DNA of 14,843 bases from Promethearchaeota archaeon (GCA_048938445.1 JBHLME010000112.1:1-14843), one strand, 5' to 3'. Positions 3-14,722 are shown, counted from the first letter of the stretch. Notes: generated by a model from the letters alone, not told the origin. Program-made: numbers and translations.

Positions 3-827
3 TTTTTACCAAAATGGGGAGATAATTCTTATTTACTACAACTCCTTGAAATGATGATTCATCGTGAAGGAATTGGTAATATTTTTGCTGATGGCGTGCA
101 GATCGCTTCTGAAAAGATACCGGGTTCAAAAGAATATGCCATTCACGCAAATGGTCAAGAGGTTCCAATGCATGATTCAAGACAGGATCCCACGTTAGCC
201 TTAACCTATATAGCTGATCCAACACCTGGACGACATACAGCTGCCTCACTTTGTATAGATGGAATTGGTGTGAAATACTTTCTTGAGGGATTAGGTACTT
301 TTAAAGTTAATGATGAAAATGATTTGGGAAAATATCAAGCTAAAATAGCGAAATTTAAACAAACAATAGAAGCGACTGGTACATGTATCATTTCTCTCAA
401 TATGGGTGTTTTTCCATATTTAGAAATTATTCAAGCTATGACTGGATGGGATGTTTCAATTGGTGAGTTATTGGACACAGGGCATAGAATCCAAACCCTT
501 CGTCAAATGTTTAATGCTCGTGAGGGGGCAATTCGCCATTATATCCCCCAACGGGCAATTGGTTCCCCTCCTTTAATTAAAGGTCCATTAAAAGATAAAA
601 CTTACGATGTAGAAACTCTTGCTCAAGATTATTACGAAGCAATGGGATATGAGAAAAACGGAGTTCCGAAAAAAGAAACTCTAGAGCTCTTGAACCTAAA
701 TTTTGCTGTGTCAGATTTAGCTATTGCCAAAGGGATACCCGAAACCTTGGAAAATGAATATATAAAATCACAAATTAAAAAAAAATTCAATAAACCTACT
801 AAACTAAAGCCATTAAGCGGGGGTTAG
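3..827 (+). CDS. Aldehyde:ferredoxin oxidoreductase (tungstopterin AOR family), C-terminal part; 5'-truncated by the window edge
   Basis: Frame is open from base 3 (FLPKWGDNSYLLQLLEMMIHREGIGNIFADG). AOR-type motifs: WGD…REG.G..LADG, GQEVPMHDSR, PGRH, TGWD…GHRI..LR.MFN.REG, DYY..MG….G.P..ETL..L.L. Confidence 0.9.
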   Translation, partial: FLPKWGDNSYLLQLLEMMIHREGIGNIFADGVQIASEKIPGSKEYAIHANGQEVPMHDSRQDPTLALTYIADPTPGRHTAASLCIDGIGVKYFLEGLGTFKVNDENDLGKYQAKIAKFKQTIEATGTCIISLNMGVFPYLEIIQAMTGWDVSIGELLDTGHRIQTLRQMFNAREGAIRHYIPQRAIGSPPLIKGPLKDKTYDVETLAQDYYEAMGYEKNGVPKKETLELLNLNFAVSDLAIAKGIPETLENEYIKSQIKKKFNKPTKLKPLSGG

Positions 828-998: not shown

Positions 999-1958
999 AT
1001 TCACGAATTTACTAAGGATCTTCAAGACTCTGGAAGCGCTATAGGGATTGCAATTGACAAGGTAGGGATTGTTAATGTTGAAAAAAAGGTAGAAATCATC
1101 CAAGAAGACAAGCATTATTCATTTTATCCCAAAATTTCCGCTTTAATCTCCCTTCCTGCCCAACAACGTGGAATTCATATGAGTAGAAGCTCTGAAACAA
1201 TTGAAGAAGTGATCAATGAAATTGTTTTTAAACCAGCTTCGACAATTGAAATCGTAGCAGATAGACTAGTGAAAAGACTGCTTGAAAGGCATCCTTATAC
1301 TTCAAATGTTGAAGTTAAATTGAAAGGTAAATTAATCATACAATCAAGGGAAAGTGGAATGAGTCACCGTAGTTATCAAAAAGCTTATGATGTAAGTTCA
1401 TTTGCAAAAGCTAGTAAAATTGAATCAGGAGAAATTGATTTTAATTACTTTATTGGGGCAACAGCAACTGGAATGACATGCTGTCCTTGTGCTCTCGGAA
1501 TGAGTAAAGAATACGCAGAACAGATTATAAATACAAGAAAAGACATTAACATTTCTGAAGATGATATAAAGAAATTACTCAATATTTTACCATTTTCATC
1601 ACATAATCAAAGATCGATGGGTACGATAATCTTACAAATAAAGGATTTGAGTGATCATGAAATTGACGTTTTTGATATCATTGACATCATCGAAGAAAGC
1701 ATGAGCGGGCGAATACAATCTGTATTAAAAAGACCTGAGGAAGCAGAATTAGTGCGGACAGCTCATTTAAAACCACTTTTCGCAGAAGATGTTATTCGTG
1801 AAATGGCAAAAAATTTTATAATCAAGGATTTTAAAAACTTAGAGGAAGATTTTAAAGTTATTTTTAAAATCGAGAGTTTTGAATCTATACATCCTCATAA
1901 TGTCTATTCTGAATTAAAGACAACAATAGGAGAATTGAAAGCTAAAATAAATCTTTAA
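999..1958 (+). CDS. mptA: GTP cyclohydrolase MptA (GCH IV; FolE2/GCYH-IB family). True start lies upstream of the ORF-track Met at 1179, probably ATT at 999
   Basis: Motifs RGIHMSR, GMTCCPCA, SHNQRS, LKRPEE, FAEDVIREM, ESIHPHN. The same frame upstream of 1179 reads DLQDSGSAIGIAIDKVGIVNVEKKV…SLPAQQRGIH, matching the family N-terminus. In-frame stop at 972-974; GGTG at 988-991. Confidence 0.9.
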   Translation: MHEFTKDLQDSGSAIGIAIDKVGIVNVEKKVEIIQEDKHYSFYPKISALISLPAQQRGIHMSRSSETIEEVINEIVFKPASTIEIVADRLVKRLLERHPYTSNVEVKLKGKLIIQSRESGMSHRSYQKAYDVSSFAKASKIESGEIDFNYFIGATATGMTCCPCALGMSKEYAEQIINTRKDINISEDDIKKLLNILPFSSHNQRSMGTIILQIKDLSDHEIDVFDIIDIIEESMSGRIQSVLKRPEEAELVRTAHLKPLFAEDVIREMAKNFIIKDFKNLEEDFKVIFKIESFESIHPHNVYSELKTTIGELKAKINL

Positions 1959-2005: not shown

Positions 2006-3115
2006 TTAAGTAATATTATTTATTTTAAAATCTTTCAATGATTCTAAGACATTCTCAACAATCAGTCTATTTTTGTCTGCTACATTTATATCCTTAAATT
2101 GATTAAAATCAACACCATTTGGAAAATAACAGCAAACTATTGTATCATGAATGGATTTTTTATCAATAAAAGAACCAGGATCATAACCTACAACTTTAAA
2201 AGAATGTTTTAGTGCGATCTCTTGTGAATTGAGACCTTGTAAGGTTGTGGGAATTCTCCACTCAATTACATTCCAATCGCTATATCTTTTTAATATATCT
2301 TTTAAATTTTGTTGATTTAAATAACCTTGAATTATAATAATAGACTTATAATGATCTTCTTCTATAGAATAGCTGTTAAATGTTAGATTTGAAGATTTAT
2401 GAAGTAATATGGTATCTTTATTCATCCTTCTTATGTTTTCCTTGATGAGATTATAAAATTTTAATATATTTTCATTATCTAAAAGAACTATATTTCTGTC
2501 CCTGAGTTTCCAAAAATTCTTTATTGGAGAAAAATACATCACGACTGATTCAATCCTTCCAGATGTGAAAGATTTTTGGTTACTTGCTTTAAAATTTCTT
2601 TTATCTCCATAATTATTATAGTTAGGAATGAATCCATACGGAATGCATCGAATTTTTTCTGCAAATTTTTGTGAATGTAGATTATTTGCTCTTACATCAG
2701 TATCAAGTCGTATCACATCTTGTAATTTAGGATCTGATAAAAAACTAAGCACGCTTTGGGTTCCTAAAACTCTTGCAATTCCATAATTTTGATATTTATT
2801 TAAAATTACTGTCTTACTTGCACAAACAGATATTTTACTCTTTCTTAACATGACCCCTGTACCAACAATCTCATTTGATTTAATGTTTTCAACAACAAAC
2901 CATGTTTGATTTATATCATTAATTTCATTTATAAGTTGTTCGGGATCATACACTTTTGGATAAAGATAATTCCAACCATAAATATCTTTAAAAATTTCAC
3001 CAATTTGTCCAGCGTCTTCAGGAATTCCATACCTAAAACCGAATTCGAGATCATTTTTAGATTTAAAAGTGAATAGATATTTTTCCTTCTGACTAATAAT
3101 TGTTTGGTTTGACAT
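2006..3115 (-). CDS. GNAT-fold N-acetyltransferase-like protein with a C-terminal domain of unknown function
   Basis: 369 aa ORF. FRYG.PEDA..I..IF…Y, WFVVE…EIVG, acetyl-CoA-binding-like VILNKYQNYGIAR, N..SQKFAEK. Substrate unknown. Confidence 0.65.
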   Translation of the reverse strand: MSNQTIISQKEKYLFTFKSKNDLEFGFRYGIPEDAGQIGEIFKDIYGWNYLYPKVYDPEQLINEINDINQTWFVVENIKSNEIVGTGVMLRKSKISVCASKTVILNKYQNYGIARVLGTQSVLSFLSDPKLQDVIRLDTDVRANNLHSQKFAEKIRCIPYGFIPNYNNYGDKRNFKASNQKSFTSGRIESVVMYFSPIKNFWKLRDRNIVLLDNENILKFYNLIKENIRRMNKDTILLHKSSNLTFNSYSIEEDHYKSIIIIQGYLNQQNLKDILKRYSDWNVIEWRIPTTLQGLNSQEIALKHSFKVVGYDPGSFIDKKSIHDTIVCCYFPNGVDFNQFKDINVADKNRLIVENVLESLKDFKINNIT

Positions 3116-3470: not shown

Positions 3471-3896
3471 ATGAAAATGGTAGATGAAAAGATTTTAGCA
3501 TCCATATCTAAAATAATTGATGAAGGACCAAAAAATAATGATGATTTCCTTAAAATTTTCGAATATATTAAAGAAATCTCAATTGAAGACGCTAATATTA
3601 AGAAAAAAATTGAAAATCTAGATATTTCGGTACAATTAATCATACCTGACAGCACGGGAAAATTTTGGCTCACTTTTAAAGAGGGAAAAATGGATTATGG
3701 GGTAGGACAAATATATGAACCTAGTTGTACCGCAGAATTACCTACTTCAATATTAGCAAGTTTAATCCAAGGTGAGATAGATGGCCCCTCTGCGTATATG
3801 GCAGGGAAAATAGATTTAAAAGGAAATGTTGCTGATTGGACGGATATAAGGGAAATTTTAATAGAAACTATATCTCTTTTAGATGACCTAATCTGA
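3471..3896 (+). CDS. SCP2 sterol/lipid-binding domain protein
   Basis: Motifs GKFWL.FKEGKMDYGVG, PSCT.EL, GEIDG.SAYMAGKIDLKGN typical of the SCP2 fold. Start could be ATG 3471 or 3477. Confidence 0.85.
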   Translation: MKMVDEKILASISKIIDEGPKNNDDFLKIFEYIKEISIEDANIKKKIENLDISVQLIIPDSTGKFWLTFKEGKMDYGVGQIYEPSCTAELPTSILASLIQGEIDGPSAYMAGKIDLKGNVADWTDIREILIETISLLDDLI

Positions 3897-4037: not shown

Positions 4038-4598
4038 ATGCCTGCTGTAGAAATCAAGTTTGATGATATCTATTTTAACCCAAAAGTTCAAACAATGTGT
4101 ATTTCATCAAACTTACATTGTCCTTTTTACAATCATTCACATTCCTGTCCTCCCGTAGCACCTTATCTAGAAGAGGAGGTCTCAAGCTATAAAAACTTTT
4201 TTCTCATTTATTCTATTTTTGATTTAGAATCCCAAGTAAAGAAGATGAAAGTAAAACATCCTAAAAGAAGTGAATATCGAATAAACCTAGAATTACAAAT
4301 GGAATATACTTTAAATGACGATTTGGAAAAAGAATTTGAGAAATTTTTAGAGGAATATAAAGATGATTACAATGAAAAGTTGCTATTGTATGCTGGTACT
4401 TGCAGGATCTGTTTTAATGAGAAAGATAAGAAGTGCACTTTCGATGACGGTATTCCATGCCGTTATCCGAATAGAATGAGATATTCAATGGAAGCTATTG
4501 GGATTGAAGTAATTAGGACAGTGATTGATTTAAATCTCGACATTGAATATCCTTCGAATAAAAAAGCTTATCGATTTGGCTTAGCTTGCTTTAAATAA
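4038..4598 (+). CDS. DUF2284-family predicted metal-binding protein
   Basis: Cys pattern C…CPFY…SCPP, GTCRIC…C…CRYP..MRYSMEAIGI; AAAGGA upstream of the ATG. Confidence 0.85.
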   Translation: MPAVEIKFDDIYFNPKVQTMCISSNLHCPFYNHSHSCPPVAPYLEEEVSSYKNFFLIYSIFDLESQVKKMKVKHPKRSEYRINLELQMEYTLNDDLEKEFEKFLEEYKDDYNEKLLLYAGTCRICFNEKDKKCTFDDGIPCRYPNRMRYSMEAIGIEVIRTVIDLNLDIEYPSNKKAYRFGLACFK

Positions 4599-4621: not shown

Positions 4622-5773
4622 TTATTTAGAAAACATCTTAATCACTTTCATGTATTCTTTTATAGGTATTATCTTCGGATTTCTTATGTATCTAATGGGA
4701 AGAGGAGCATCACATCGAGAGCATAAACTAGAATTTTTTGTCCAATCCTTGAACTCATCGGCATGTGCAGGATATCTACACTCAGGACATATTATGATAC
4801 CTCTACCATTATCCTCCGGATATTTAGGTAATTCGAAACAGAAAATGCATTTAAAATCTTCCTTAGTTAAATTGACTCCTTTTGGTTTTAATTTCGCATA
4901 ATTAGTTTGTGGTTTATTTTTTTGAGTTCTTGGAGTTGCTTTTACTCTAGAAGGTTTTGCTTTAGTTTGCTTTGACCGGTTAGAAGCAGTTGTAGGTCTT
5001 GATGTCCTTCGAGTTGTAGTGCTTTGAGATCTTGATGTTGAAGATCTAGTTCTTGGAGTGGGTACGGTGTTATATTGTTGTCTTCTTGTAACGGGTCTAT
5101 TTTGAGGTCTAACATTTTCATTAATATTCCGTGTACGTGCTGTTATATAATCTTCTGTTATTTGGGGTAATGAAGATCTTTTTCCAAAAATTCCTGGATA
5201 GATCATTAATAATACTATAATAACCAGACTTATTATAAGGATGAGATCAAATGAATAATTAATTGGATTTAATAGAGTTTGAACCTGAGTAAAATAATTA
5301 AAGAAATAAATCCAATACCCTACTATGACAAATATTGTAGAAAATCCAATAAAGAATCCAAATGCTCGAGCACCTACAGATTTTGTTCCGAAATAAACTG
5401 AAATGTATTTTCTAAACATGTAATATAACGAGAAGAGGCTATAAAGTAAGTAAGGAAAACCAAAAAGAATACTCCACAAATTTAGAGATACATTTGAAGC
5501 TCCTAATAGGTTAACTCCTAATAATCCCGTATAATTACTCCAAACAGTAAATAATATACCTATAAATAATGGAAGAAGTATAAAAAAAGCCGTGTTATGG
5601 GGTGAATGATATTCACGATGTTGTTTTATTTTTTTAAAAAACTTAAGAGTAAATATAATCCAGATCCCGATCATGATCCATGAGATTAAGATATTAAAAG
5701 AGGATGCAATAAAAACTCCGTGGATAATCCCTATGATTAAACTTATTATTAAAATAATTACATTCCACATCAA
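4622..5773 (-). CDS. Multi-pass (about 6 TM) membrane protein with a basic S/T/R-rich linker and a C-terminal variant RING finger; putative membrane E3 ligase
   Basis: Six hydrophobic segments in the first ~195 aa, then a low-complexity linker, then C309-x2-C-x16-C-x2-C-x4-H-x2-E-x3-W-x6-C-x2-C354. Co-oriented downstream of E2 and JAMM. AGGAGTGA RBS at 5780-5787; start TTG 5773 or ATG 5770. Confidence 0.75.
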   Translation of the reverse strand: MMWNVIILIISLIIGIIHGVFIASSFNILISWIMIGIWIIFTLKFFKKIKQHREYHSPHNTAFFILLPLFIGILFTVWSNYTGLLGVNLLGASNVSLNLWSILFGFPYLLYSLFSLYYMFRKYISVYFGTKSVGARAFGFFIGFSTIFVIVGYWIYFFNYFTQVQTLLNPINYSFDLILIISLVIIVLLMIYPGIFGKRSSLPQITEDYITARTRNINENVRPQNRPVTRRQQYNTVPTPRTRSSTSRSQSTTTRRTSRPTTASNRSKQTKAKPSRVKATPRTQKNKPQTNYAKLKPKGVNLTKEDFKCIFCFELPKYPEDNGRGIIICPECRYPAHADEFKDWTKNSSLCSRCDAPLPIRYIRNPKIIPIKEYMKVIKMFSK

Positions 5774-5896
5774 ATTATTTCACTCCTAGATGTAATAATA
5801 AAAATAAGGATAAAAAAATTTAATGATTATCAATTCTTGTCCAATTTCTATTAATAAATAGAGGCTTTTTTATCATCGAATTAGATTAAAAAGTAA

Positions 5897-6724
5897 TCAG
5901 GAATCCTCATCATATTCCAAATACGCGGCTTTACCTTCAATTATGGGATTCATGAAGTTTAGAATGTCAGGAAGCATGCGGACATCTATAGCACCTCGAA
6001 TATTATAAGGAACTGAAAACCACCTCCTTGTTTGTAAATTTGCTCTATATATTTCAAAACCCAAGGATGTACCGTCAATTTGATAAGGATCAACAACAAG
6101 AGCAACCGCTTTTTTCCAAAGTTTTTGATATCTTGCTTGAGTACCCATATCTTCATTACTCATAAAAAGACCATATGAAGGATGGCTATGGTACCACCCA
6201 CAAATAAATAAATCATTTTTCTTGATATCTTTCCAAGCTTTCACGTAATTTTTATAATCCTTTATTTCAGCATAAACCGCATTACCATGACCCATTGGAT
6301 AAGCATCTTCTACAAGGAGGATAGAATCATTATTTTCTAATTTACCTGCAAGGAGTCCAATTACTTCAACCCATTGAGATCTTGGAATTTTAGAATGGGC
6401 ATATTTCAGTGCATGACTGGCGATCTTTAAAATTGCTTTAACAGTGATTTCTGTCTTCATTTTAGGCTTTTTCTTTTGTATCGGATATTTCTCATAGTCC
6501 GGAGTAATATATTCTTCTTTCTGTTTTTGCTCATGATTAATATATTCTTCAACAATTTGTTCCGCGACTACTTCGGGTTCTTCGGGTTTTTTATATTTTT
6601 TTTTATCCTTTTCTTCTGCTTTCAATTCTTCATATATTTCCTCAAGAAGTTCACGTTTTAGCCTTATTTTTTCCATTTTCTTCTTAATCGCTTCCGCTTC
6701 ATTTAATAAATCATCGTAGCTCAT
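5897..6724 (-). CDS. JAMM/MPN+ (Mov34, Rpn11/CSN5-like) metalloisopeptidase with an N-terminal charged coiled-coil extension
   Basis: Intact JAMM motif: E120 (EVIGLLAG), H179-S-H181-x7-S189-x2-D192 (GWYHSHPSYGLFMSNED), followed by ALVVDP. Confidence 0.95.
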   Translation of the reverse strand: MSYDDLLNEAEAIKKKMEKIRLKRELLEEIYEELKAEEKDKKKYKKPEEPEVVAEQIVEEYINHEQKQKEEYITPDYEKYPIQKKKPKMKTEITVKAILKIASHALKYAHSKIPRSQWVEVIGLLAGKLENNDSILLVEDAYPMGHGNAVYAEIKDYKNYVKAWKDIKKNDLFICGWYHSHPSYGLFMSNEDMGTQARYQKLWKKAVALVVDPYQIDGTSLGFEIYRANLQTRRWFSVPYNIRGAIDVRMLPDILNFMNPIIEGKAAYLEYDEDS

Positions 6725-6732
6725 CTAAAGAT

Positions 6733-6737
6733 TCACC
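6733..6737 (-). promoter_or_regulatory. GGTGA ribosome-binding site for the JAMM gene, overlapping the E2 stop codon (translational coupling)
   Basis: Minus strand reads TGG TGA ATCTTTAG ATG: the E2 stop lies within GGTGA, 8 nt before the JAMM ATG. Confidence 0.6.
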
Positions 6738-7260
6738 ACTTTTTATTAGCATATTTTTTCACGAGATGTTTTACTTTTTTCTCGTAAGTACTTGGATTAT
6801 TAATCATTTCTAATGCTGCTTTTTTGTTAAAAACATCTGTAGGATTGATATATTTACCTCGAGTATTGAACATGGCAATAATTGCTTGAATAACAGTTGT
6901 AATTGTTTTTGATGGGCTCCATCCTCCCTTCTTACCAATCAAGCTAGGATCTACGAGTGCCAAGCAAATATTACGCTGACCTTTATATTCTTGAGGCTTA
7001 GGCCAAAAATTTGGATGCCAAATTGGTGTATGCAGGCGCACAAATGGAGGTTTACTAGGATATTCTGGAGGAAACTGGACTTCAAGACGAAATAATCCTC
7101 CCTGAAATGCCGTACCATTTGGACCTTTTAACGTGATAGCAAGATGGTCTATAGCCTTGCTTTTTGGATTGAATGGCTTTAATTGTTCAATTTTACCATC
7201 CTTTAACATTTTTTTTAATCTCGAAAATTCTTGCGATACTCTACTATTTCTCGCGCTCAT
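6733..7260 (-). CDS. Ubiquitin-conjugating enzyme E2 (UBC fold)
   Basis: GP.GT.FQGG.F.L.V.FP.EYP.KPP.V.L.TPIWHPN, active-site ICL (Cys99), WSPS.TI..V..AI, NP.D.FN..AA. Confidence 0.96.
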   Translation of the reverse strand: MSARNSRVSQEFSRLKKMLKDGKIEQLKPFNPKSKAIDHLAITLKGPNGTAFQGGLFRLEVQFPPEYPSKPPFVRLHTPIWHPNFWPKPQEYKGQRNICLALVDPSLIGKKGGWSPSKTITTVIQAIIAMFNTRGKYINPTDVFNKKAALEMINNPSTYEKKVKHLVKKYANKKW

Positions 7261-7576
7261 AAAATCATATCTATTTTTTTTATTTTAATATAATAATATA
7301 AAGAAATTATTATAAAGTAATTTGGAATAATTTTGAAGTATTTTATAATTGCTTAAATCCAAAAAATAATGATTCTAAAGATATTATTATTGATTAAAGT
7401 CAATGATTTTTTATGTTTTTTTATTGTAATTATCCAATGAGTTAAATTTAGGATAATCCATAATTATATTATTTAATATTAAAATTATATACTTAATCAC
7501 ATATATTAGTTCGATAATCGACTAAGATATGATATTTTCAAATATAATAATTAATTTTTGGGAGATAAAGAAATAT

Positions 7577-7583
7577 GAGGTGA
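7577..7583 (+). promoter_or_regulatory. GAGGTGA Shine-Dalgarno site upstream of the LRR gene
   Basis: Strong archaeal SD match 6 nt before an in-frame ATA at 7590. Confidence 0.55.
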
Positions 7584-7589
7584 ATTACT

Positions 7590-8405
7590 ATAACTGAGGA
7601 GATTATTACCTATAGGAATAGTAAATTGCTAAAATCTGAAGTTGATATAATTAAGGAAATAGAGGAGGAACTTGGAATAGAATCGACATCTAGACCAGAT
7701 GCTTTTGATCTATTCGTCCCTTTACAATTTATTGCTGAAGATTATCGAATAAAGCATATCACTCTACATAAGTATCCATTTTCCTCATTCCCTGAAGCCA
7801 TAACTAAGCTTATTTATCTTGAAACCTTGAATTTTACTTCTACGGAATTAGAAAATCTTCCTAAATCGATTGGATACCTTAAAAATCTTAAAATTTTAGC
7901 GATAGACAATGGTAAATTATCAGATCTTCCCAATTCTTTAAAAAAGATTGATTCGATCACAACCTTAATGCTTCAAAATAATAATTTTACTCACATACCA
8001 GAAGTAATTACCGAATTAGAATCACTTGTATATTTATATCTTTCAGGTAATCAGTTAACATCGCTTCCTGAAAATATAGGGAAGCTTAAATCTCTTAAAG
8101 AATTAAATCTTAGTTGGAATAAACTTTCAAGTCTTCCTTCCTCAATAGGAAATCTTTCTTCACTTGAAAATTTAACTTTATCAAAAAATCAATTATCTGA
8201 GATACCTGATTCAATAGGTAAACTTGCTTCTCTTAAAGAAATATGGATTCATGAAAATATTTTAGAATCTTTACCCGAATCAATAGTAAATATAAAATCC
8301 CTTAAGAGTTTGCAAATAGATGGTAATCCAATTCACGATAAAACAAGTTCTAAAGTCAAGATTATATTAGAGAAACTCAAGAATATGGGTGTTGAGCTCG
8401 ATTAG
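7590..8405 (+). CDS. Leucine-rich repeat protein (about 8-9 repeats of 23 aa); ORF track starts it at TTG 7626, probable start ATA 7590
   Basis: Repeats of LxxLxxLxLxxNxLxxLPxxIGx, e.g. LKSLKELNLSWNKLSSLPSSIGN and LSSLENLTLSKNQLSEIPDSIGK; ends with a GNP cap and a short helix. No catalytic domain visible. Confidence 0.93.
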   Translation: MTEEIITYRNSKLLKSEVDIIKEIEEELGIESTSRPDAFDLFVPLQFIAEDYRIKHITLHKYPFSSFPEAITKLIYLETLNFTSTELENLPKSIGYLKNLKILAIDNGKLSDLPNSLKKIDSITTLMLQNNNFTHIPEVITELESLVYLYLSGNQLTSLPENIGKLKSLKELNLSWNKLSSLPSSIGNLSSLENLTLSKNQLSEIPDSIGKLASLKEIWIHENILESLPESIVNIKSLKSLQIDGNPIHDKTSSKVKIILEKLKNMGVELD

Positions 8406-8418
8406 AAACAAAAACTAA

Positions 8419-9642
8419 TCAATTAATTCTTAAAGTTAATAAAATCTCACCTTTTTTAAATCCTGCAACGGTAATGAGCTCTAGATCTCTTAATCCATTT
8501 TTTTTAATTGACTGTTCCAGATCAATCTCCTTTATATCGTTGAAATCAATTGTTGTCAGGATTGGTACCATTTCTGGATCAAGGTCATGACCTCGATCTA
8601 CTAGGGCATCAACAAGTTTTTGGCAAGGTTCATTACGACTTGTATGAATATCTTCGCGTACGACCTGCTCTCCACATTGAGTGCAATTAATTCTTCTTTT
8701 TTTTTCAATCGAATAAAATTTCATGGTCATTCCATTGAAAACTGTATAAGTTCTAATTGGTTCTCCTAAAGCATTATTTCCACGCAACCAATGAAGTATT
8801 TTAATGGTTTCATGTGATTGAATCGCAGATATAATAGCATTTATGGTAATAATTCCTGGATCATGCCTATCTATTATTTTTATTATATCTGCTTTGGAAA
8901 AGGGGGGTGGAAAATTATGTTTTTCTGATAAATCATTAGCTATTTTTTGTATGAACTCAATATCCTTGATTTTTGTTGGATCTGGATCTTTCTTGAATTT
9001 ATCCTGAAATGCCATATTTCCCTTAAAAACACAATGTACTCTCTTGCGTGGAATTCCAACTACCGTGCAAGCTGCCATATCATCATCTTCAACAGAAGGT
9101 AAAGGATTGCATTCAAAACATGCATTCTCATATGGAAAGATGGTATAAAAATGTCCATGATAACCTGAGACACCTCCATCTATCAAGGGCTTCTTAAAAC
9201 GCACGGCTTGGGCGTTTAAATTAAGTCTTGCATTCATCGAATCTAATCCACCAATGATTACATCTGCAGCATTATAGATTGCTGGATCAAGACGTTCTAA
9301 GGACGTGCTATACCCTTCAATGGTGATATTTGGATTGATCTTCCTTAACATTTTTGCAGCAGCAAGTGCTTTTGGTTGTCCCATTTTGGCATCAATAAAT
9401 AATATTTGACGATTTAGGTTTGAGTGTTCGATCACGTCTAAATCAACCAAATCGAGATGTCCAACACCCAACATCGCTAAATTTTTAGCTATTTCACACC
9501 CTAGACCGCCTACACCTGCAATTAACACTCTTGAATTTTTTACAATTGACTGAGACCATCCTTCAAGTCTAAACTGTCGATTGTATAATTCTCTCTCTTT
9601 TGCGGTTAAATCCTCACTAAAAAAATCAGAATCATTTTCCAA
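8419..9642 (-). CDS. Ubiquitin-like activating enzyme E1 (ThiF/MoeB adenylation domain, Uba3/Uba2-type catalytic Cys insert, probable C-terminal ubiquitin-fold domain)
   Basis: YNRQ.RL, GVGGLG nucleotide loop, D.D.IE.SNLNRQ, GLDS..AR, Zn pairs CFEC and CTQC, catalytic-like ACTVVGIPRKRVHC (Cys192), PGIITINAIISA. TTG start with GGTGA at 9648-9652. Confidence 0.95.
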   Translation of the reverse strand: MENDSDFFSEDLTAKERELYNRQFRLEGWSQSIVKNSRVLIAGVGGLGCEIAKNLAMLGVGHLDLVDLDVIEHSNLNRQILFIDAKMGQPKALAAAKMLRKINPNITIEGYSTSLERLDPAIYNAADVIIGGLDSMNARLNLNAQAVRFKKPLIDGGVSGYHGHFYTIFPYENACFECNPLPSVEDDDMAACTVVGIPRKRVHCVFKGNMAFQDKFKKDPDPTKIKDIEFIQKIANDLSEKHNFPPPFSKADIIKIIDRHDPGIITINAIISAIQSHETIKILHWLRGNNALGEPIRTYTVFNGMTMKFYSIEKKRRINCTQCGEQVVREDIHTSRNEPCQKLVDALVDRGHDLDPEMVPILTTIDFNDIKEIDLEQSIKKNGLRDLELITVAGFKKGEILLTLRIN

Positions 9643-9724
9643 TTATATCACCATTCATAATTATTATGTTAAAAAATAAAAAAACATTGAAAGTAAAAAT
9701 AACTTTCATTTTTAATTTATACCT

Positions 9725-10072
9725 TTAAAAAATTCCTGCGGTACTTGCAGGGATTAGAAGAACATCATCTCCATCAGCAACGCCATAATCGCTTAATGGA
9801 TTGCTTTCATCCATAGTAACACCACCATGTGATAAGTGAAAGTCATTAGGATTCAAACCAAAGATATTTCCAACAGTCTTCTTTACATCGCCTACCATAT
9901 TTCCATCATTAACGGTAAGTTTTTGTTTCTTTTCTCCAGGACCGATTGTAGACATGAAAAAAACAGAAATTTTTCTTCCTCCTGAGGGAATCTTGGATGC
10001 AGGAGTTTTTGAACTGATTGGTTCAGGCTCTTCTAATTCTTCTAGTTCTTCATCAAATTCTTCAAAACTCAT
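9725..10072 (-). CDS. Ubiquitin-like modifier A (beta-grasp), acidic N-terminal tail, C-terminus IPASTAG-IF (precursor form)
   Basis: Ubiquitin-like pattern V.D.K..V…F.L…G..MD…LSDYGV.DGD.V.L; immediately upstream of E1 on the same strand; AGGAG RBS at 10081-10085. Confidence 0.9.
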   Translation of the reverse strand: MSFEEFDEELEELEEPEPISSKTPASKIPSGGRKISVFFMSTIGPGEKKQKLTVNDGNMVGDVKKTVGNIFGLNPNDFHLSHGGVTMDESNPLSDYGVADGDDVLLIPASTAGIF

Positions 10073-10223
10073 GTAAATCTCTCCTTTTTTTTTTAATTTT
10101 CAATATACTTTTTTAATAAAATGACATCAAAATGATATTATAAAACCCTCTGGAAAGAAAGTGAAGTTTTTTCGGGAACTAATATTTTAAGTGATGATTA
10201 ATGAAATGTTTAAATACGGATCT

Positions 10224-10259
10224 TATATATAAAGGAGAAGCATATTAATATATATAAAG
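10224..10259. promoter_or_regulatory. Two copies of TATATATAAAG; candidate TATA boxes in the divergent modifier A/wHTH intergenic region
   Basis: Identical 11-mers at 10224-10234 and 10249-10259; they read CTTTATATATA on the minus strand, which fits an archaeal TATA box. Confidence 0.4.
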
Positions 10260-10332
10260 AATTTTAATTTGTCTTAGAGAGATAATAGAAAAGAAATAAC
10301 TGAAGAAATTAACTTAATAAAAGTATATTTAA

Positions 10333-11007
10333 ATGGATTCTACGAATAATATAGATTCTGTCGTGTTAGACTTAATAAAGGAATATTTATCCAAAAAAAC
10401 GTTCTTTTCAATAAAAGATCTTATTGATTATATAAATAATAGGGTAAAGATGAATCCCTACATAAATAGAAACAGAATCGAACTTGTCATTAAATCCTTA
10501 ATTAAAAAGAAAGAAATCATTCCAGGTACCAAGTTAATGAAAAATAATATAATAGACAATCAAACTAGAAAAAAAATATTTAATTATATAAAAAAAAATC
10601 CTGCAATAAACATCAATGAAATAATGAAACATCAAGAAATTGGAAGTAATCAAGCATTATGGCACTTATCAGCATTGGAGAAATTTCAATTTATCCGGTC
10701 AAAGAAGATTGGAAACCGTAGGATTTTTTTTATAATTGGCTCAAATCCGGAATTTGATGACATATATTATTACTTAAAGATGGAAATTGTCAATGAAATA
10801 ATTAAATTCATGGACAAAAATAAAAAAGCTCTAAAAATAACTGATATTGCTGATGGTTTAAAAAAAAACCACAATGTTATTAAAAAGTACCTAAATATTT
10901 TGGATGAACTCAATTTATTAGAAATAGAAAAAGAAAAATCTAGAGATACCTATAAAATAGATCAAGAAAGATATTCAGAAGTGATTAAACTTGTCAGTAA
11001 AAAATAA
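10333..11007 (+). CDS. Tandem winged helix-turn-helix transcriptional regulator
   Basis: N.TRKKIFNYIKKNP.I.INEI…WHLS.LEKF.FI.S.KIGN and a second HTH, LKITDIADGLKKNHNVIKKYL..L.EL.LL; a third wHTH-like segment is possible at the N-terminus. Confidence 0.85.
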   Translation: MDSTNNIDSVVLDLIKEYLSKKTFFSIKDLIDYINNRVKMNPYINRNRIELVIKSLIKKKEIIPGTKLMKNNIIDNQTRKKIFNYIKKNPAININEIMKHQEIGSNQALWHLSALEKFQFIRSKKIGNRRIFFIIGSNPEFDDIYYYLKMEIVNEIIKFMDKNKKALKITDIADGLKKNHNVIKKYLNILDELNLLEIEKEKSRDTYKIDQERYSEVIKLVSKK

Positions 11008-11063
11008 ACATGAACACTTCAAGTTTATGCCAATGGAATTTAAATTATTAATTAAACATATGT

Positions 11064-11900
11064 ATGTTGATAAAAAAATTGTTTAAAATTATGGAAAAAA
11101 AGTATAAAATTATAAGCGTTATAACAGTTTATGTTATATCAATCATCGTGTATGTTCTGTTTTTCTCACAGTTCATTCCTTACCTTAATTTGATTGTCAT
11201 AGGTAGTTTAACTGTGATCTCTACTGGTACTTTATATGCCATAATTCATGAATCAAACAACCAATATAAGAGAGAAAAGAAACTTAAAGTCTTAAAGCAA
11301 ACTAAATTAGAACTTGAAAAGTCAAGCGAATTTACAAAGAAATCTATTCAAGAATCGCCAGAGGTAATTGGAGAATATCTTGAAGCCTTTCCTTATATCG
11401 AAGACTATGTTGAATCTGATGTAACATATGAACAAGTTCCAATTATAAATGAGATCATCTTTTCAGACTTAAATCAAGAAGTATTGAAAAAGATTAATTT
11501 GTTAAATTTATCACAAATAGAAAAACTCCAATTTATTAGGGAACTTCTATATTATGAACCGGAAGAAAGAGATAATTTGATTGAAAACATGTTAGAAAAT
11601 CGAGACAAAATAGATGAGGATGTTATTTATTCAGTACCTTTAAAAACTCTTGAATTAGCAGATAAATTCAGGGTACATGTAATATCATTAGTAGAACCAG
11701 GAGAAAAGAAGAAAATAATAATTATTGAATCACTTGATATGATTATTGAAATAAAGAAAAAGGTTGGAGTTTTATTTGATTATAATCTAGAAGATTTTCA
11801 TCTAACTACGGGGGGTATAATGTTAGATGAAACTCTTCAAATAAAAGATTATTTTATCGAAGATGATGATGAGATTGTTCTAATTCCCATCCGTAAATAA
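11064..11900 (+). CDS. Membrane protein (2 N-terminal TM helices, helical middle) with a C-terminal ubiquitin-like domain paralogous to the two free modifiers but lacking the terminal Gly
   Basis: Hydrophobic IISVITVYVISIIVYVLFF and LIVIGSLTVISTGTLYAII; C-terminal PGEKK…IKKKVG.LF….EDFHL..GG..LDE…DY.I.D.D.I.LIPIRK. Start may be ATG 11091. Confidence 0.85.
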   Translation: MLIKKLFKIMEKKYKIISVITVYVISIIVYVLFFSQFIPYLNLIVIGSLTVISTGTLYAIIHESNNQYKREKKLKVLKQTKLELEKSSEFTKKSIQESPEVIGEYLEAFPYIEDYVESDVTYEQVPIINEIIFSDLNQEVLKKINLLNLSQIEKLQFIRELLYYEPEERDNLIENMLENRDKIDEDVIYSVPLKTLELADKFRVHVISLVEPGEKKKIIIIESLDMIIEIKKKVGVLFDYNLEDFHLTTGGIMLDETLQIKDYFIEDDDEIVLIPIRK

Positions 11901-11919
11901 ATTAAATGAATTAAGAGAT

Positions 11920-12261
11920 CTATCCTGCAATACTAGCAGGAATTAATAAAATATCATCACCATCTTTAACATTATATTCTATTAGAGGATTATTTTCATC
12001 CATTGTAATCCCACCGTGCGATAAATGAAAATCTAATGGATTCAATGCAAATAAATTACCAACTGTTTGCTTAATATCTTCAACTAGATTACCAGTATAA
12101 ACTACTAATTTATGCTTTTTTTCACCAGGTCCTATTGTTGACATGAAATAAAGTGCAATTTTTTTTCCTTCGTTGGTAGGAACTTTAGATTTTAATCCTT
12201 CTGATTCATCATGTTCCAGATCTTCATCAAGATCTTCATCAAATTCATCATCAAAATCCAC
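11920..12261 (-). CDS. Ubiquitin-like modifier B, acidic N-terminal tail, C-terminus IPASIAG-stop (mature form)
   Basis: 59 of 82 residues identical to modifier A over the folded domain (manual count). GTG start preceded by AGGATGTGA. Confidence 0.9.
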   Translation of the reverse strand: MDFDDEFDEDLDEDLEHDESEGLKSKVPTNEGKKIALYFMSTIGPGEKKHKLVVYTGNLVEDIKQTVGNLFALNPLDFHLSHGGITMDENNPLIEYNVKDGDDILLIPASIAG

Positions 12262-13666: not shown

Positions 13667-14722
13667 GTGAGCATTTCTAAAATTGATTTTATTAAAGGTA
13701 TTGAAGGAGATTATGTAGAGACAAAAAAAAACCATCTCTTTTTTGATATTAAAGGCGTTCATCATCCAAAAGATAGGAAAATTTGTTTTATACGATTTCA
13801 TCCCGATCCACTTGGCGATCGAGAAAAAAATGGAATAAAATATAAAAAAATATATGATTTGCGTGAAAGATATTCTTATTTGAAAAGAGAATATCCCGAA
13901 TATTTATTCTATTCCGAACAATTAGATTTGGAGTTACAAGGAGTAAAAAATGAAGATATTTTAAAAATTTATACTCCACGAGATTATTATGCGGAATTAC
14001 TTAAAAAATCCGACTTGTCCCGATTGGAAAAATGTTCTCTTGAATTATGTGAACTTTTTATTTCTGATGGAAATCTCCCAAAAGGATCTATTGGAATCAC
14101 CGGATCTCCAATGATTGGATTAAATAAAGAGATTTCGGATATAGATATAATGATCTATGGTACTGAAACGAGTTTAGATTTTCAAAAATCCCTTTCAGAA
14201 ATAATAAAGGATAGTAACAATTTTTGTAGGGAATATGCACTACAAGAATATCAAGTACATTATGATTGGAGAGTCGGAGGTTCAGATATACCTTTCGATA
14301 AATTTCTTCAATGTGAAAGGAGAAAACTCCACCAAGGTATGTATAAAGGTTTCGAATTTTTTATAAGATACTTAAAAAGTCCGAAAGACTGGCAAGGTGG
14401 GTATTATGATTATAAATATAAAAATCTTGGAAGGATTAAAATTAGAGCTAATATTTTGGACTCCACTGATTCCATATTTACACCTTGTTCGTATGAAATT
14501 GAAGTCTCTAAAATTTTAGAAAATGAGTCAAGTAAAAAAAATATTAAAAAGCAAGAAATCCTTAAAGTAAACTCGTTTAGAGGTAGATTTTGTGAACACG
14601 CTATAAAAGGAGAAGATGTAATAATTGAAGGAAAATTGGAGCGCGTTCTTTATAAAAATACTGAGAAATATTATCGTATTTTATTAAGCGATCAAGCTCG
14701 CGATAAAATGATACGTGCTTGA
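13667..14722 (+). CDS. Archaeal predicted nucleotidyltransferase (Pol-beta superfamily, COG1665-like)
   Basis: IGITGS..IGL….SDIDI.IYG catalytic signature; N-terminal EGD.VET…F.IKG..HP…F.R; C-terminal SFRGRFCE.A..GE.V..EGKLE. GTG start 9 nt after the coiled-coil stop. Confidence 0.8.
   Translation: MSISKIDFIKGIEGDYVETKKNHLFFDIKGVHHPKDRKICFIRFHPDPLGDREKNGIKYKKIYDLRERYSYLKREYPEYLFYSEQLDLELQGVKNEDILKIYTPRDYYAELLKKSDLSRLEKCSLELCELFISDGNLPKGSIGITGSPMIGLNKEISDIDIMIYGTETSLDFQKSLSEIIKDSNNFCREYALQEYQVHYDWRVGGSDIPFDKFLQCERRKLHQGMYKGFEFFIRYLKSPKDWQGGYYDYKYKNLGRIKIRANILDSTDSIFTPCSYEIEVSKILENESSKKNIKKQEILKVNSFRGRFCEHAIKGEDVIIEGKLERVLYKNTEKYYRILLSDQARDKMIRA

Follow-up and report, generated by a model that had tools for sequence, protein, structure and literature searches.

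In Caldiarchaeum subterraneum, one operon encodes Rpn11, ubiquitin, a conjugating enzyme (E2), an activating enzyme (E1) and a small RING finger protein, and the sections of PMC5654768 on its reconstitution in vitro report that Rpn11 trims the pro-ubiquitin and that the modification of a substrate depends on E1, E2 and RING alike. For the Asgard archaea, the accessible text of 10.1101/2023.07.25.550441 describes the in vitro reconstitution of a Helarchaeota E1, E2, RING ligase (E3) and pro-ubiquitin ending in Gly-Gly (GG) plus SPKN. Hatano et al. 2022 (PMC9192718) scored the co-location of InterPro-defined ubiquitin, E1, E2, E3 (IPR018611, a UFL1-type signature) and JAMM genes, and in its accessible parts that paper presents a discrete ubiquitin gene region in Lokiarchaeota (ubiquitin, E1, E2 and JAMM by InterPro). 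The accessible parts of Liu et al. (10.1101/2020.10.19.343400) and Makarova et al. [quoted passage not shown] Here we describe a locus at positions 4622 to 12261 of a 14,843-nucleotide stretch of DNA from a Promethearchaeota archaeon (GCA_048938445.1 JBHLME010000112.1:1-14843), referred to below in its whole length as the window. The locus encodes ubiquitin-like (Ubl) modifiers, an E1, an E2, a JAMM protease and a protein with six transmembrane (TM) helices and a C-terminal RING variant (TM-RING). It is probably, though by no means surely, a second, Asgard-specific Ubl conjugation system, paralogous to the ESCRT-linked GG system and matching the Caldiarchaeum operon component by component.

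[quoted passage not shown] Many Asgard lineages, including Heimdallarchaeia-labelled ones, carry a second, separately conserved cascade, the putative ligase of which is an integral membrane protein unannotated in the databases. If active, it would be the first archaeal membrane-bound ubiquitin-type ligase, and the origin of membrane protein quality control or sorting by Ubl tags would become directly testable, since the five components are small and can be co-expressed. The Ala-Gly end of the modifier, its conserved acidic SKTP tail and the Glu-substituted RING offer handles for such experiments.

Comparison with the described archaeal operons

As in Caldiarchaeum, the five component types are clustered. 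The ThiF-type E1, the UBC-type E2 and the MPN+ JAMM protease, the combination by which archaeal ubiquitin operons are recognised, lie together in the window and have their catalytic motifs. The JAMM protease and the Ubl are closest to Caldiarchaeum structures, the precursor tail is presumably cut by JAMM, and the RING has an Ile and a Trp at the positions of E2 contact. However, the Gly-Gly terminus, direct or after processing, which characterises archaeal ubiquitin operons of the Caldiarchaeum/Asgard type, is replaced by Ala-Gly in 118 of the 120 relatives listed. The modifier of the window ends in Ala-Gly and has an acidic N-terminal extension of ~35 residues, whereas that of Caldiarchaeum ends in Gly-Gly plus 9 residues. 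Instead of the small soluble RING of the Caldiarchaeum and Asgard type, the RING is here the C-terminus of a 383-residue six-TM protein, to the membrane domain of which it is fused via a basic tether, and it has Glu at ligand position 6. Unlike Caldiarchaeum, the window also holds two modifier genes and a membrane-anchored Ubl-domain protein (TM-Ubl).

The Lokiarchaeota region of Hatano et al. is most likely of the operon type of the window, as far as the accessible text of that paper describes it, and a RING lacking an InterPro signature would have escaped its InterPro-based scoring. In the literature searched, neither a RING embedded in the membrane nor a modifier ending in Ala-Gly nor a membrane Ubl protein was described for Asgard archaea, although supplementary material (asCOG lists of Liu et al., figures of Hatano et al.) may list the genes. 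Thus the operon type is known, while the unannotated polytopic RING, the distinct modifier and the evidence for a separate, ancient paralogue are new.

Conservation and distribution of the operon

The window corresponds to contig C32, in full, of an Asgard metagenome-assembled genome (MAG) of 4.63 Mb with a completeness of 96.5% and a contamination of 8.17%; its GC content is ~25-36%. A preliminary description of this DNA had interpreted nine open reading frames (ORFs) as a self-contained conjugation locus of membrane-centred design. In the ORF check all nine were found where they had been placed, with intact catalytic motifs, and the set of Ubl, E1, E2, JAMM and RING genes is indeed complete; the leucine-rich repeat (LRR) protein, then counted as a member of the design, had to be removed from it, as described below. 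The minus-strand genes, which had been read in transcription order, are likewise real, but they do not form a single transcription unit in the window because plus-strand genes interrupt them; in relatives the operon is contiguous. An 8.4-kb contig from a different sample covers positions 7788-12260 with 3 differences from the window. Since it repeats the order LRR-E1-UblA-winged helix-turn-helix (wHTH)-TM-Ubl-UblB, this order is not peculiar to the assembly of the window. Among the contigs of study P2, which are short fragments, none crosses from LRR into E1 with 31 letters to each side of the junction.

Relatives of the E1 with 60-72% identity were found at 13 loci of named Asgard MAGs (Promethearchaeota, Borrarchaeum, Helarchaeota, Sigynarchaeum, Sifarchaeum). 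All ten of these loci that reach the TM-RING gene have the order Ubl-E1-E2-JAMM-TM-RING on one strand, and the remaining three stop at contig edges. The same order was observed in the loci L047, L048, L050, L052, L055, L056 and L057, so that the comparison of gene neighbourhoods proposed in the preliminary description reveals synteny in named relatives and in distant families alike. In the distant loci L047, L048, L052 and L055 the identity to the window is 44-46% for E1, 56-59% for E2, 41-44% for JAMM, 24-29% for TM-RING and 50-55% for the Ubl. The operon consists of two separate blocks, E2-JAMM-TM-RING and Ubl-E1, in L049 and L054. The operon enzymes of the distant families are in all cases nearer to those of the window than to the GG-type paralogues.

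Matches to the TM-RING profile were obtained in 136 of the 301 sampled genomes of the Asgard phylum (47 of the 90 high-quality ones). By family, they were present in 59/68 genomes of the window's own family and in 26/28, 18/21, 8/11, 7/11 and 6/7 genomes of five others, where weak matches can be soluble RING-only proteins, as in L053 (of the 7/11 family) and L058; in one further family none of the 76 genomes searched gave a match. Among the named members, those that diverge most bear the labels Heimdallarchaeota, Hodarchaeota and Kariarchaeaceae, and none is non-Asgard.

The enzymes

The relatedness of the enzymes was judged from pairwise identities and PDB bit scores. The best PDB match of the E1 is UBA3 (2.9e-35, 125 bits, aligned over residues 32-350), followed by UBA7, UBA2, UBA6 and UBA1, while UBA5 reaches 6e-15 and 58 bits. 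The catalytic Cys192, within AACTVVG, is aligned with the Cys of the UBA3 motif MCTIA, which we take to be the catalytic Cys of UBA3. CxxC pairs are located at 175/178 and 320/323, and the C-terminal region of ~85 residues may be an E2-recruiting ubiquitin-fold domain. The E2 has a canonical UBC fold (PDB match 1.5e-15), and its sole Cys, Cys99, follows the HPN motif at 82-84; between the two lies a 7-residue insertion, WPKPxEY, which appears as a gap in 7wlh_B and is conserved in the orthologues. The enzyme is 70-79% identical in 11 Asgard orthologues. Thus the likeness to the eukaryotic NEDD8 and ubiquitin cascades extends over the UBA3 alignment with its catalytic Cys and the HPN and Cys of the E2; unlike those cascades, the window has a single-chain E1 of 407 residues, an E2 with the insertion and a modifier only weakly similar to ubiquitin or NEDD8.

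The JAMM protease, with the motif HSHPx7SxxD and a charged N-terminal extension of ~90 residues, has as its best solved relative the Rpn11-like protein of Caldiarchaeum (6fju, 1e-16), followed by Rpn11 and CSN5. It is presumed to trim UblA (from AGIF to AG) and to take off conjugates. Since 77 of 118 family Ubls are encoded in the mature form, deconjugation is probably its main role. The UBA3-like E1, the canonical UBC-type E2 and the Rpn11-like JAMM together assign the enzymes to the ubiquitin/NEDD8 type rather than the UFM1 type.

The modifiers and the membrane-anchored Ubl protein

UblA belongs to the ubiquitin family (PF00240, 26.5 bits against a cut-off of 25.4). It ends in IPASTAG-IF, whereas UblB, 66% identical to it, ends in IPASIAG and is thus encoded mature. 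The family comprises 907 relatives at E<=1e-3. The C-terminus of 118 of the 120 listed has the form IP[AS]SxAG; 77 of the 118 stop at the Gly and 41 have 1-4 extra residues. The Ubls of the distant families retain IP(V/H/A)STAG. The N-terminal tail of UblA is disordered and acidic, with a net charge of -10 over its first 20 residues (median -8 in 52 sequences), and is followed by a conserved SKTP motif with an invariant Lys22. No Lys or Arg is present in UblA beyond Lys65. The AlphaFold2 (AF2) model of UblA has a beta-grasp core with a predicted local distance difference test (pLDDT) value >90 over residues 31-110. Its closest PDB folds are Caldiarchaeum ubiquitin (6fno_D, E 3.8e-8, 27% identity, root-mean-square deviation (rmsd) 1.6; then 6fj7 and 6fnn; overall 27-28% identity and rmsd 1.6-1.8), followed by ISG15, NEDD8, Hub1 and ubiquitin.

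TM-Ubl starts with a two-helix membrane hairpin, continues with an acidic middle part and closes with a Ubl domain that has 35% identity to UblA. Since its end, LIPIRK, has no Gly, the protein is not conjugatable via its C-terminus, and it is a possible membrane docking or adaptor element. Its N-terminal 190 residues were found in 41 of the 69 genomes of the window's family. Coordinates were compared by hand in 31 genomes with both a TM-Ubl (E< ~1e-22) and a TM-RING match, four more being not judgeable; in 25 of the 31 the two genes lie within ~6 kb on one contig, mostly at a distance of ~4.6 kb, and in 6 they are on other contigs or 40 kb apart. TM-Ubl is therefore a regular accessory of the locus. 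A second Ubl is found nearby in L002, L005, L006, L007, L010, L011, L013, L097, L047, L048 and L055.

The same Ubl domain, with the AG end, also terminates large proteins adjoining the operon elsewhere (L007:6333-8075, L011:1910-3718 and L010:9691-11448; P0258, P0260, P0261). Examples are HerA-like ATPase-Ubl (580-602 residues) and VWA-Ubl (585-587 residues) proteins, and such whole enzymes might be conjugated through their own C-terminal Ubl. In metagenomes a tandem di-Ubl (229 residues) and a 534-residue Ubl-ThiF protein, either a Ubl-E1 fusion or a read-through gene call, were seen (P0241, P0242).

The C-terminal domain of the TM-RING protein

The TM-RING gene starts with a TTG codon at 5773, from which residues are numbered here; an ATG follows at 5770, and the database copy has 382 residues. 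The protein consists of a 6-TM domain (residues 1-221, nucleotides 5111-5773), a linker (222-291) and the RING variant (292-383, nucleotides 4625-4900). It has no Pfam or NCBIfam match at E<=0.1, and its 299 database relatives are all named 'hypothetical' and have no Pfam domain. The motif of the C-terminal part is C309-x2-C312-x16-C329-x2-C332-x4-H337-x2-E340-x3-W344-x6-C351-x2-C354, and that of the family C-x2-C-x12-16-C-x2-C-x4-H-x2-E-x3-W-x6-C-x2-C.

The AF2 model, based on 67 sequences (pLDDT 81.6), has six TM helices and a confident C-terminal domain, with residues 222-288 below 50. In both VIA-align and Foldseek, the PDB matches on residues 285-383 were RING or U-box E3 domains without exception. 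VIA-align gave 3lrq_A (Z 7.6, rmsd 3.8, 72 residues aligned) and Ring1b (2ckl_B, Z 7.3), then, down to Z 5.8, TRIM, CHIP, Rad18, RNF4, UHRF1 and RNF168, a Z range that is middling by the tool's own caution. The Foldseek matches, with probabilities up to 1.00, TMt of 0.5-0.77 and E>=0.03, include the RING of HRD1 (6f98) and the RING-H2 of EL5. When a profile of 24 TM-RING-type domains from close and distant families was aligned by hhalign with six Pfam-positive zf-RING_2 proteins of the same genome, the result was 97.0% with E 8.9e-11, and the ligand columns were in register. Single-sequence Pfam scans of the 24 members gave Prok-RING_1 in 24, zf-RING_16 in 21 and zf-RING_2 in 15, all below threshold. 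By profile and fold comparison, the C-terminal domain is thus assigned as a RING.

Seven of the metal ligands are canonical and in RING spacing. Position 6 is Glu in 66 of the 67 members and Ala in one, while the Pfam-positive RINGs of the same genome have equal spacing and Cys at this position. Asp339, invariant in the close alignment A2, had been considered as the eighth ligand and was dropped, since distant families replace it yet keep Glu340. Ile310, Phe311 and Trp344 are invariant, and their positions match the E2-binding Ile and Trp of the Caldiarchaeum RING, residues that were mutated in the experiments described in the accessible text of PMC5654768. Co-folding of the E2 with the RING gave a score of 0.51, a weak pass, against 0.00 for the best control, with contacts agreeing to at least 96% between runs and a partner pLDDT of at least 89. 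Among solved complexes 58 of 80 attain the mark used, as do 2 of 110 mismatches, but only 7 of those 80, and both mismatches, attain it with scores of 0.60 or below.

Two soluble proteins of other Asgard families, a 407-residue protein (L053:8567-8764) and a 199-residue one (L058:8563-8712), contain a RING of the same spacing with His at the Glu position; neither adjoins a Ubl operon.

The strongest rival to a membrane ligase starts from these same features. It accepts the cascade as real, but takes the TM-RING protein for a receptor or anchor of the E2~Ubl conjugate, or for its main substrate, with a degenerate RING that docks the E2, rather than for a ligase of other proteins. The nearly constant Glu as sixth ligand, the failure to reach a Pfam RING cut-off and the weak co-fold support are consistent with such a role, and the 6 Lys of the linker in the window's copy would suit a protein that is its own substrate. 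We consider this unlikely, since the seven ligands, their spacing and the Ile/Phe and Trp at the E2-contact positions do not vary between families with an overall identity of only 23-31%, which argues for selection on a working RING. Moreover, an 87-residue RING encoded in an ESCRT-linked cluster (L094, described below), which is of the same cluster type as the reconstituted Helarchaeota E3, fares no better in Pfam (zf-RING_2 5e-4).

The membrane domain, linker and topology

The linker between the TM domain and the RING is basic, disordered and rich in Ser, Thr, Arg and Pro; its net charge amounts to +19 in the protein of the window (+7 to +23 overall, with a median of +17). Among the 67 sequences, the median numbers of Lys plus Arg in the TM2-3, TM4-5 and post-TM6 loops are 3, 3 and 5, and zero in each of the alternate loops. 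This positive-inside pattern predicts a cytoplasmic N-terminus and a cytoplasmic RING.

A profile of the TM domain only, searched against 1.84 billion representatives, returned 95 proteins, all of this family. Of the 69 TM-domain representatives with at least 320 residues, 67 have the RING motif, and in these Glu occupies ligand 6 in 66 and the Trp is found in all 67. Since the TM profile finds only such proteins, the TM domain and the RING variant form an obligate fusion and a closed family. A search of residues 1-225 in the ESM Atlas gave no usable match, and the fold search of the TM domain gave generic helical matches only, e.g. APH-1 (Foldseek probability 0.14) and HRD1 (9uav_B, VIA-align Z 6.1).

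In the window's genome, a 4.7-kb contig (G000 C235; L093:1-1678) opens inside a second TM-RING gene, 41% identical to that of the window. Next to it comes a FolE2 homologue with 73% identity to window 1179-1958, a neighbour pair as in L006. This gene could be a true paralogue or, given the MAG contamination of 8%, a fragment of another Asgard genome.

Distinctness from the GG-type ubiquitin systems

GG-ending Ubls coexist with the AG-type system in the window's genome and in all five other genomes checked. In the window's genome, contig C176 (13266-15743; L014) encodes a JAB protein (177 residues), an E1 (291 residues), an E2 (182 residues) and an 84-residue Ubl ending in VVGG. Contig C5 (113-3493; L016) encodes an E2 (169 residues) and an E1 (530 residues) with a long charged insertion after the adenylation domain; no Ubl was found near it, and the contig begins just upstream. 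A further 84-residue Ubl, ending in GGI, adjoins a small GTPase on contig C80. The E2 of the window is 34.5% identical to that of C5 and ~27% to that of C176, and its E1 is 45% identical over the N-terminal 156 residues to that of C5 and 28% to that of C176, the C5 pair being the closest paralogues. Between the window's Ubls and the GG Ubls of the same genome, the relation was barely detectable or none was detected. Each of the five other genomes has one or both of two GG-ending Ubl families, one with the end TRTEGG, in three of the genomes, and one with ATQAGG, in two; a third ATQAGG copy (G322) is lost at a contig end.

The Ubl of the C176 cluster lies on the opposite strand, with a gene for a Cys-rich 248-residue protein alongside, and the cluster is a third Ubl system of the genome.

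A Helarchaeota-titled genome holds an operon of the window's type (L008) and, on a separate contig (L094), an E1 (338 residues), an E2 (156 residues), a ubiquitin ending in TRTEGG and the 87-residue RING, next to genes for a UEV protein, ESCRT-II, Vps4 and two Snf7 proteins. The two cascades share enzyme families, phylum and genome. The ESCRT-linked one differs in its GG modifier of ~81 residues, its soluble RING and its UEV, ESCRT-II, Vps4 and Snf7 neighbours, none of which stands beside the window's operon. Compared with the window's enzymes, the ESCRT-linked E1 has an identity of 29% and the ESCRT-linked E2 one of 31%. This E2 matches the eukaryotic UBE2D with 81 bits, while the E2 of the window reaches at most 60.5 bits with a eukaryotic E2 and that of C5 65.6 bits.

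Since it coexists with GG systems and its enzymes have diverged from theirs, the locus is, by sequence comparison, a separate paralogue of the ESCRT-linked GG-ubiquitin system. This agrees with the preliminary description, which had set the system apart from GG-type Asgard ubiquitin. It had named a single-Gly AG end, an acidic N-terminal tail, a polytopic RING and a membrane Ubl; each of these features is real, and each is conserved. That the locus is instead the ordinary, already catalogued Asgard ubiquitin system without a separate role appears quite improbable. The discrete ubiquitin, E1, E2 and deubiquitinase region of Lokiarchaeota, as far as the accessible text of Hatano et al. 2022 (PMC9192718) presents it, and the NCBI name of the modifier, 'ubiquitin-like domain-containing protein', would fit such a reading; but it has to face the coexistence with GG-type ubiquitins in six of six genomes, the full ESCRT-linked cluster at ~30% enzyme identity in one of them, and an ESCRT-linked E2 nearer to UBE2D than the window's E2 is to any eukaryotic E2.

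Relation to defence, lipid-conjugating and UFM1 systems

Bacterial defence operons have the same gene set of Ubl, E1, E2 and JAB, and in some loci the HerA-like ATPase-Ubl and VWA-Ubl fusions lie nearby, so that a conflict or anti-virus system resembling the bacterial Bil modules or Cap2/Cap3 of the cyclic-oligonucleotide-based anti-phage signalling system (CBASS) has to be weighed. The adenylation domain of the E1 does match the CBASS 'E1-E2' models (1.4e-18). However, the E1 scores 125 bits with UBA3 against 65, and the PADLOC (2023) models gave no match for the E2, Ubl, TM-RING or TM-Ubl and only 2.4e-4 for the JAB. The operon is near-universal and syntenic within families (59/68, 26/28 and 18/21 genomes), with an E2 70-79% conserved, unlike patchy defence islands. 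Identity with a known defence system was rejected on the PADLOC result, in which only the E1 adenylation domain and, weakly, the JAB are matched, and a defence function in general is highly improbable.

There is a very slight probability that the target of the single-Gly modifier is a membrane lipid instead of a protein (compare ATG8, which is joined to phosphatidylethanolamine) and that the membrane protein serves as platform. The single terminal Gly, the membrane-embedded partner and the closed-family TM domain would be in line with it. ATG7 and ATG3, however, differ from a UBA3-like E1 and a UBC-like E2 with HPN, which are what the locus encodes; its RING is typical of Lys-directed transfer, and ATG7 appeared only as a weak NCBIfam match (8e-13).

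Processed UFM1 ends in a single Gly, which the end of the modifier resembles, and UFC1 is without HPN. The likening of the locus to UFMylation in the preliminary description nevertheless could not be upheld as homology, and an archaeal counterpart of the UFM1 pathway has barely any probability: Ufm1 homologues are reported for nine Asgard clades in the accessible text of Koestlbacher et al. 2026 (PMC12962969), but UBA5 ranks far below UBA3 (58 against 125 bits), the E2 is a UQ_con protein with HPN, PF03671 gave no match for the Ubls at E<=0.1 and none genome-wide at E<=0.01, and no UFM1 entry is among the top 50 PDB matches of the Ubl model.

Proposed mechanism

From the homology to the Caldiarchaeum cascade we infer the enzymatic steps of the second, AG-type cascade; the location of the substrates at the membrane and the roles of the tails and of TM-Ubl are proposals as well. 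JAMM would cut the two extra residues of UblA, while UblB, as most members of the family, already ends in Ala-Gly. E1 would adenylate the terminal Gly, form a thioester on Cys192 and hand the Ubl over to Cys99 of the E2. The cytoplasmic RING, on the long basic tether of the six-pass protein, would bind the E2~Ubl and promote transfer to lysines at the cytoplasmic face of the membrane, and JAMM would reverse the modification. The basic tether of the ligase may serve as a docking site for the acidic N-terminal tail of the Ubl, or this tail may hold a chain-forming lysine, that of SKTP, and the Gly-less TM-Ubl may be a fixed docking site for the same Ubl-binding partners. The location of the ligase in the membrane, the opposite charges of tether and tail and the adjoining membrane-anchored Ubl protein suggest an organisation of the reaction around the membrane.

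Several points weigh against this model. No Pfam RING cut-off was reached by any of the 24 TM-RING members scanned. The Glu at ligand 6 may mean that the second zinc site is changed or missing, so that ligase activity cannot be assumed, and the weak co-fold pass may stem from memorised solved structures, RING-E2 being a textbook pair. Processing by JAMM is not a general requirement, as 77 of the 118 Ubls of the family are encoded mature, and a UBA3-like E1 would have to activate a modifier with Ala as penultimate residue. No recognisable relative of the TM domain was found in the ESM Atlas, the fold search or the search of 1.84 billion representatives, and there is consequently no hint of its binding partner. 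The search for RNA runs containing the locus listed none, and the contamination of the MAG, 8.17%, also counts here.

The membrane RING ligases of endoplasmic-reticulum-associated degradation (ERAD) are Hrd1 and Doa10/MARCH, with Herp/Usa1 and TMUB as membrane Ubl partners. The locus resembles them in architecture: a polytopic membrane domain, a cytoplasmic RING and an adjoining gene for a non-conjugatable membrane Ubl protein. No homology of the TM domain was detected, HRD1 being one of the generic helical matches, and the organism has no endoplasmic reticulum; the relation is a functional analogy at most, and tagging at the membrane in the ERAD manner would be such an analogy, drawn from architecture. 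A further-reaching scenario, which we regard as possible but doubtful, would trace a membrane RING ligase, with Ubl, E1, E2 and isopeptidase of its own, back to the last ancestor shared by the Lokiarchaeia and Heimdallarchaeia types of Asgard archaea; the ligase would mark integral or peripheral membrane proteins for extraction, turnover or sorting. It would be a forerunner or an independent invention of ERAD/MARCH-style ubiquitination, before endomembranes, with the Gly-less Ubl as a Herp/Usa1-type adaptor and the acidic tail docking on the basic tether.

Accessory and neighbouring genes

The genes of the window are collected in Table 1. A locus of the same genus (L097) has TM-RING-JAMM-E2-E1-UblA, then wHTH and TM-Ubl, then UblB and the coiled-coil gene, i.e. 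the arrangement of the window minus the LRR gene, and L006 has the same set of accessory genes as these two.

Table 1. Predicted genes of the window and the matches on which their names are based
Feature	Coordinates	Strand	Matches and remarks
Aldehyde:ferredoxin oxidoreductase, C-terminal part	3-827		Flank, apparently unrelated to the Ubl system
FolE2-type GTP cyclohydrolase	1179-1958		Flank, apparently unrelated to the Ubl system
369-aa ORF	2006-3115		No Pfam match; flank, apparently unrelated to the Ubl system
SCP2 domain protein	3471-3896		Flank, apparently unrelated to the Ubl system
DUF2284	4038-4598		Flank, apparently unrelated to the Ubl system
TM-RING protein, putative membrane E3, 383 aa	4622..5773	-	6-TM domain, linker, C-terminal RING variant
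JAMM/MPN+ metalloprotease, 275 aa, Rpn11-like	5897..6724	-	PF01398 1.4e-12; HSHPx7SxxD
E2, 175 aa	6733..7260	-	UQ_con 3e-25; HPN 82-84; Cys99
LRR protein, 259 aa	7626..8405	+	LRR Pfam families
E1, 407 aa	8419..9642	-	ThiF 5.2e-57; Cys192
UblA, modifier precursor, 115 aa	9725..10072	-	PF00240 5.5e-6
Double winged-helix (ArsR-like) protein, 224 aa	10333..11007	+	HTH_24, HTH_5 and HVO_0163 N-terminal HTH matches
TM-Ubl, 278 aa	11064..11900	+	TM segments; ubiquitin family 5.9e-3 (below cut-off)
UblB, second modifier, 113 aa	11920..12261	-	Ubiquitin family 3.7e-5 (below cut-off)
Lys/Glu-rich coiled-coil protein, 399 aa	12458..13657	+, divergent	Coiled-coil/SMC-like sub-threshold matches only
Nucleotidyltransferase-domain gene	13667-14722		Directly after the coiled-coil gene

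The LRR gene between E1 and E2 is absent from L097 and from all other loci examined. On these grounds the LRR protein was rejected as a component of the system, and its gene is an insertion private to the window's genome, in which many LRR paralogues are found elsewhere. Below threshold, the protein (7626-8405) matched NCBIfam families of bacterial type III effectors in their LRR regions; E3 ligases are found among these effector families.

The wHTH gene is found at the matching position in L006 (62% identity) and L097 (65%) and has many paralogues in the genome; its product is a candidate local regulator. Homologues of the coiled-coil gene were observed in 12 of the 13 named loci and in L050, L056, L057 and L097 (59% identity), and it is a near-constant neighbour of the operon across Lokiarchaeia-type loci. 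Both the coiled-coil and the nucleotidyltransferase-domain genes are kept beside the operon in L006, with 40% and 59% identity, respectively.

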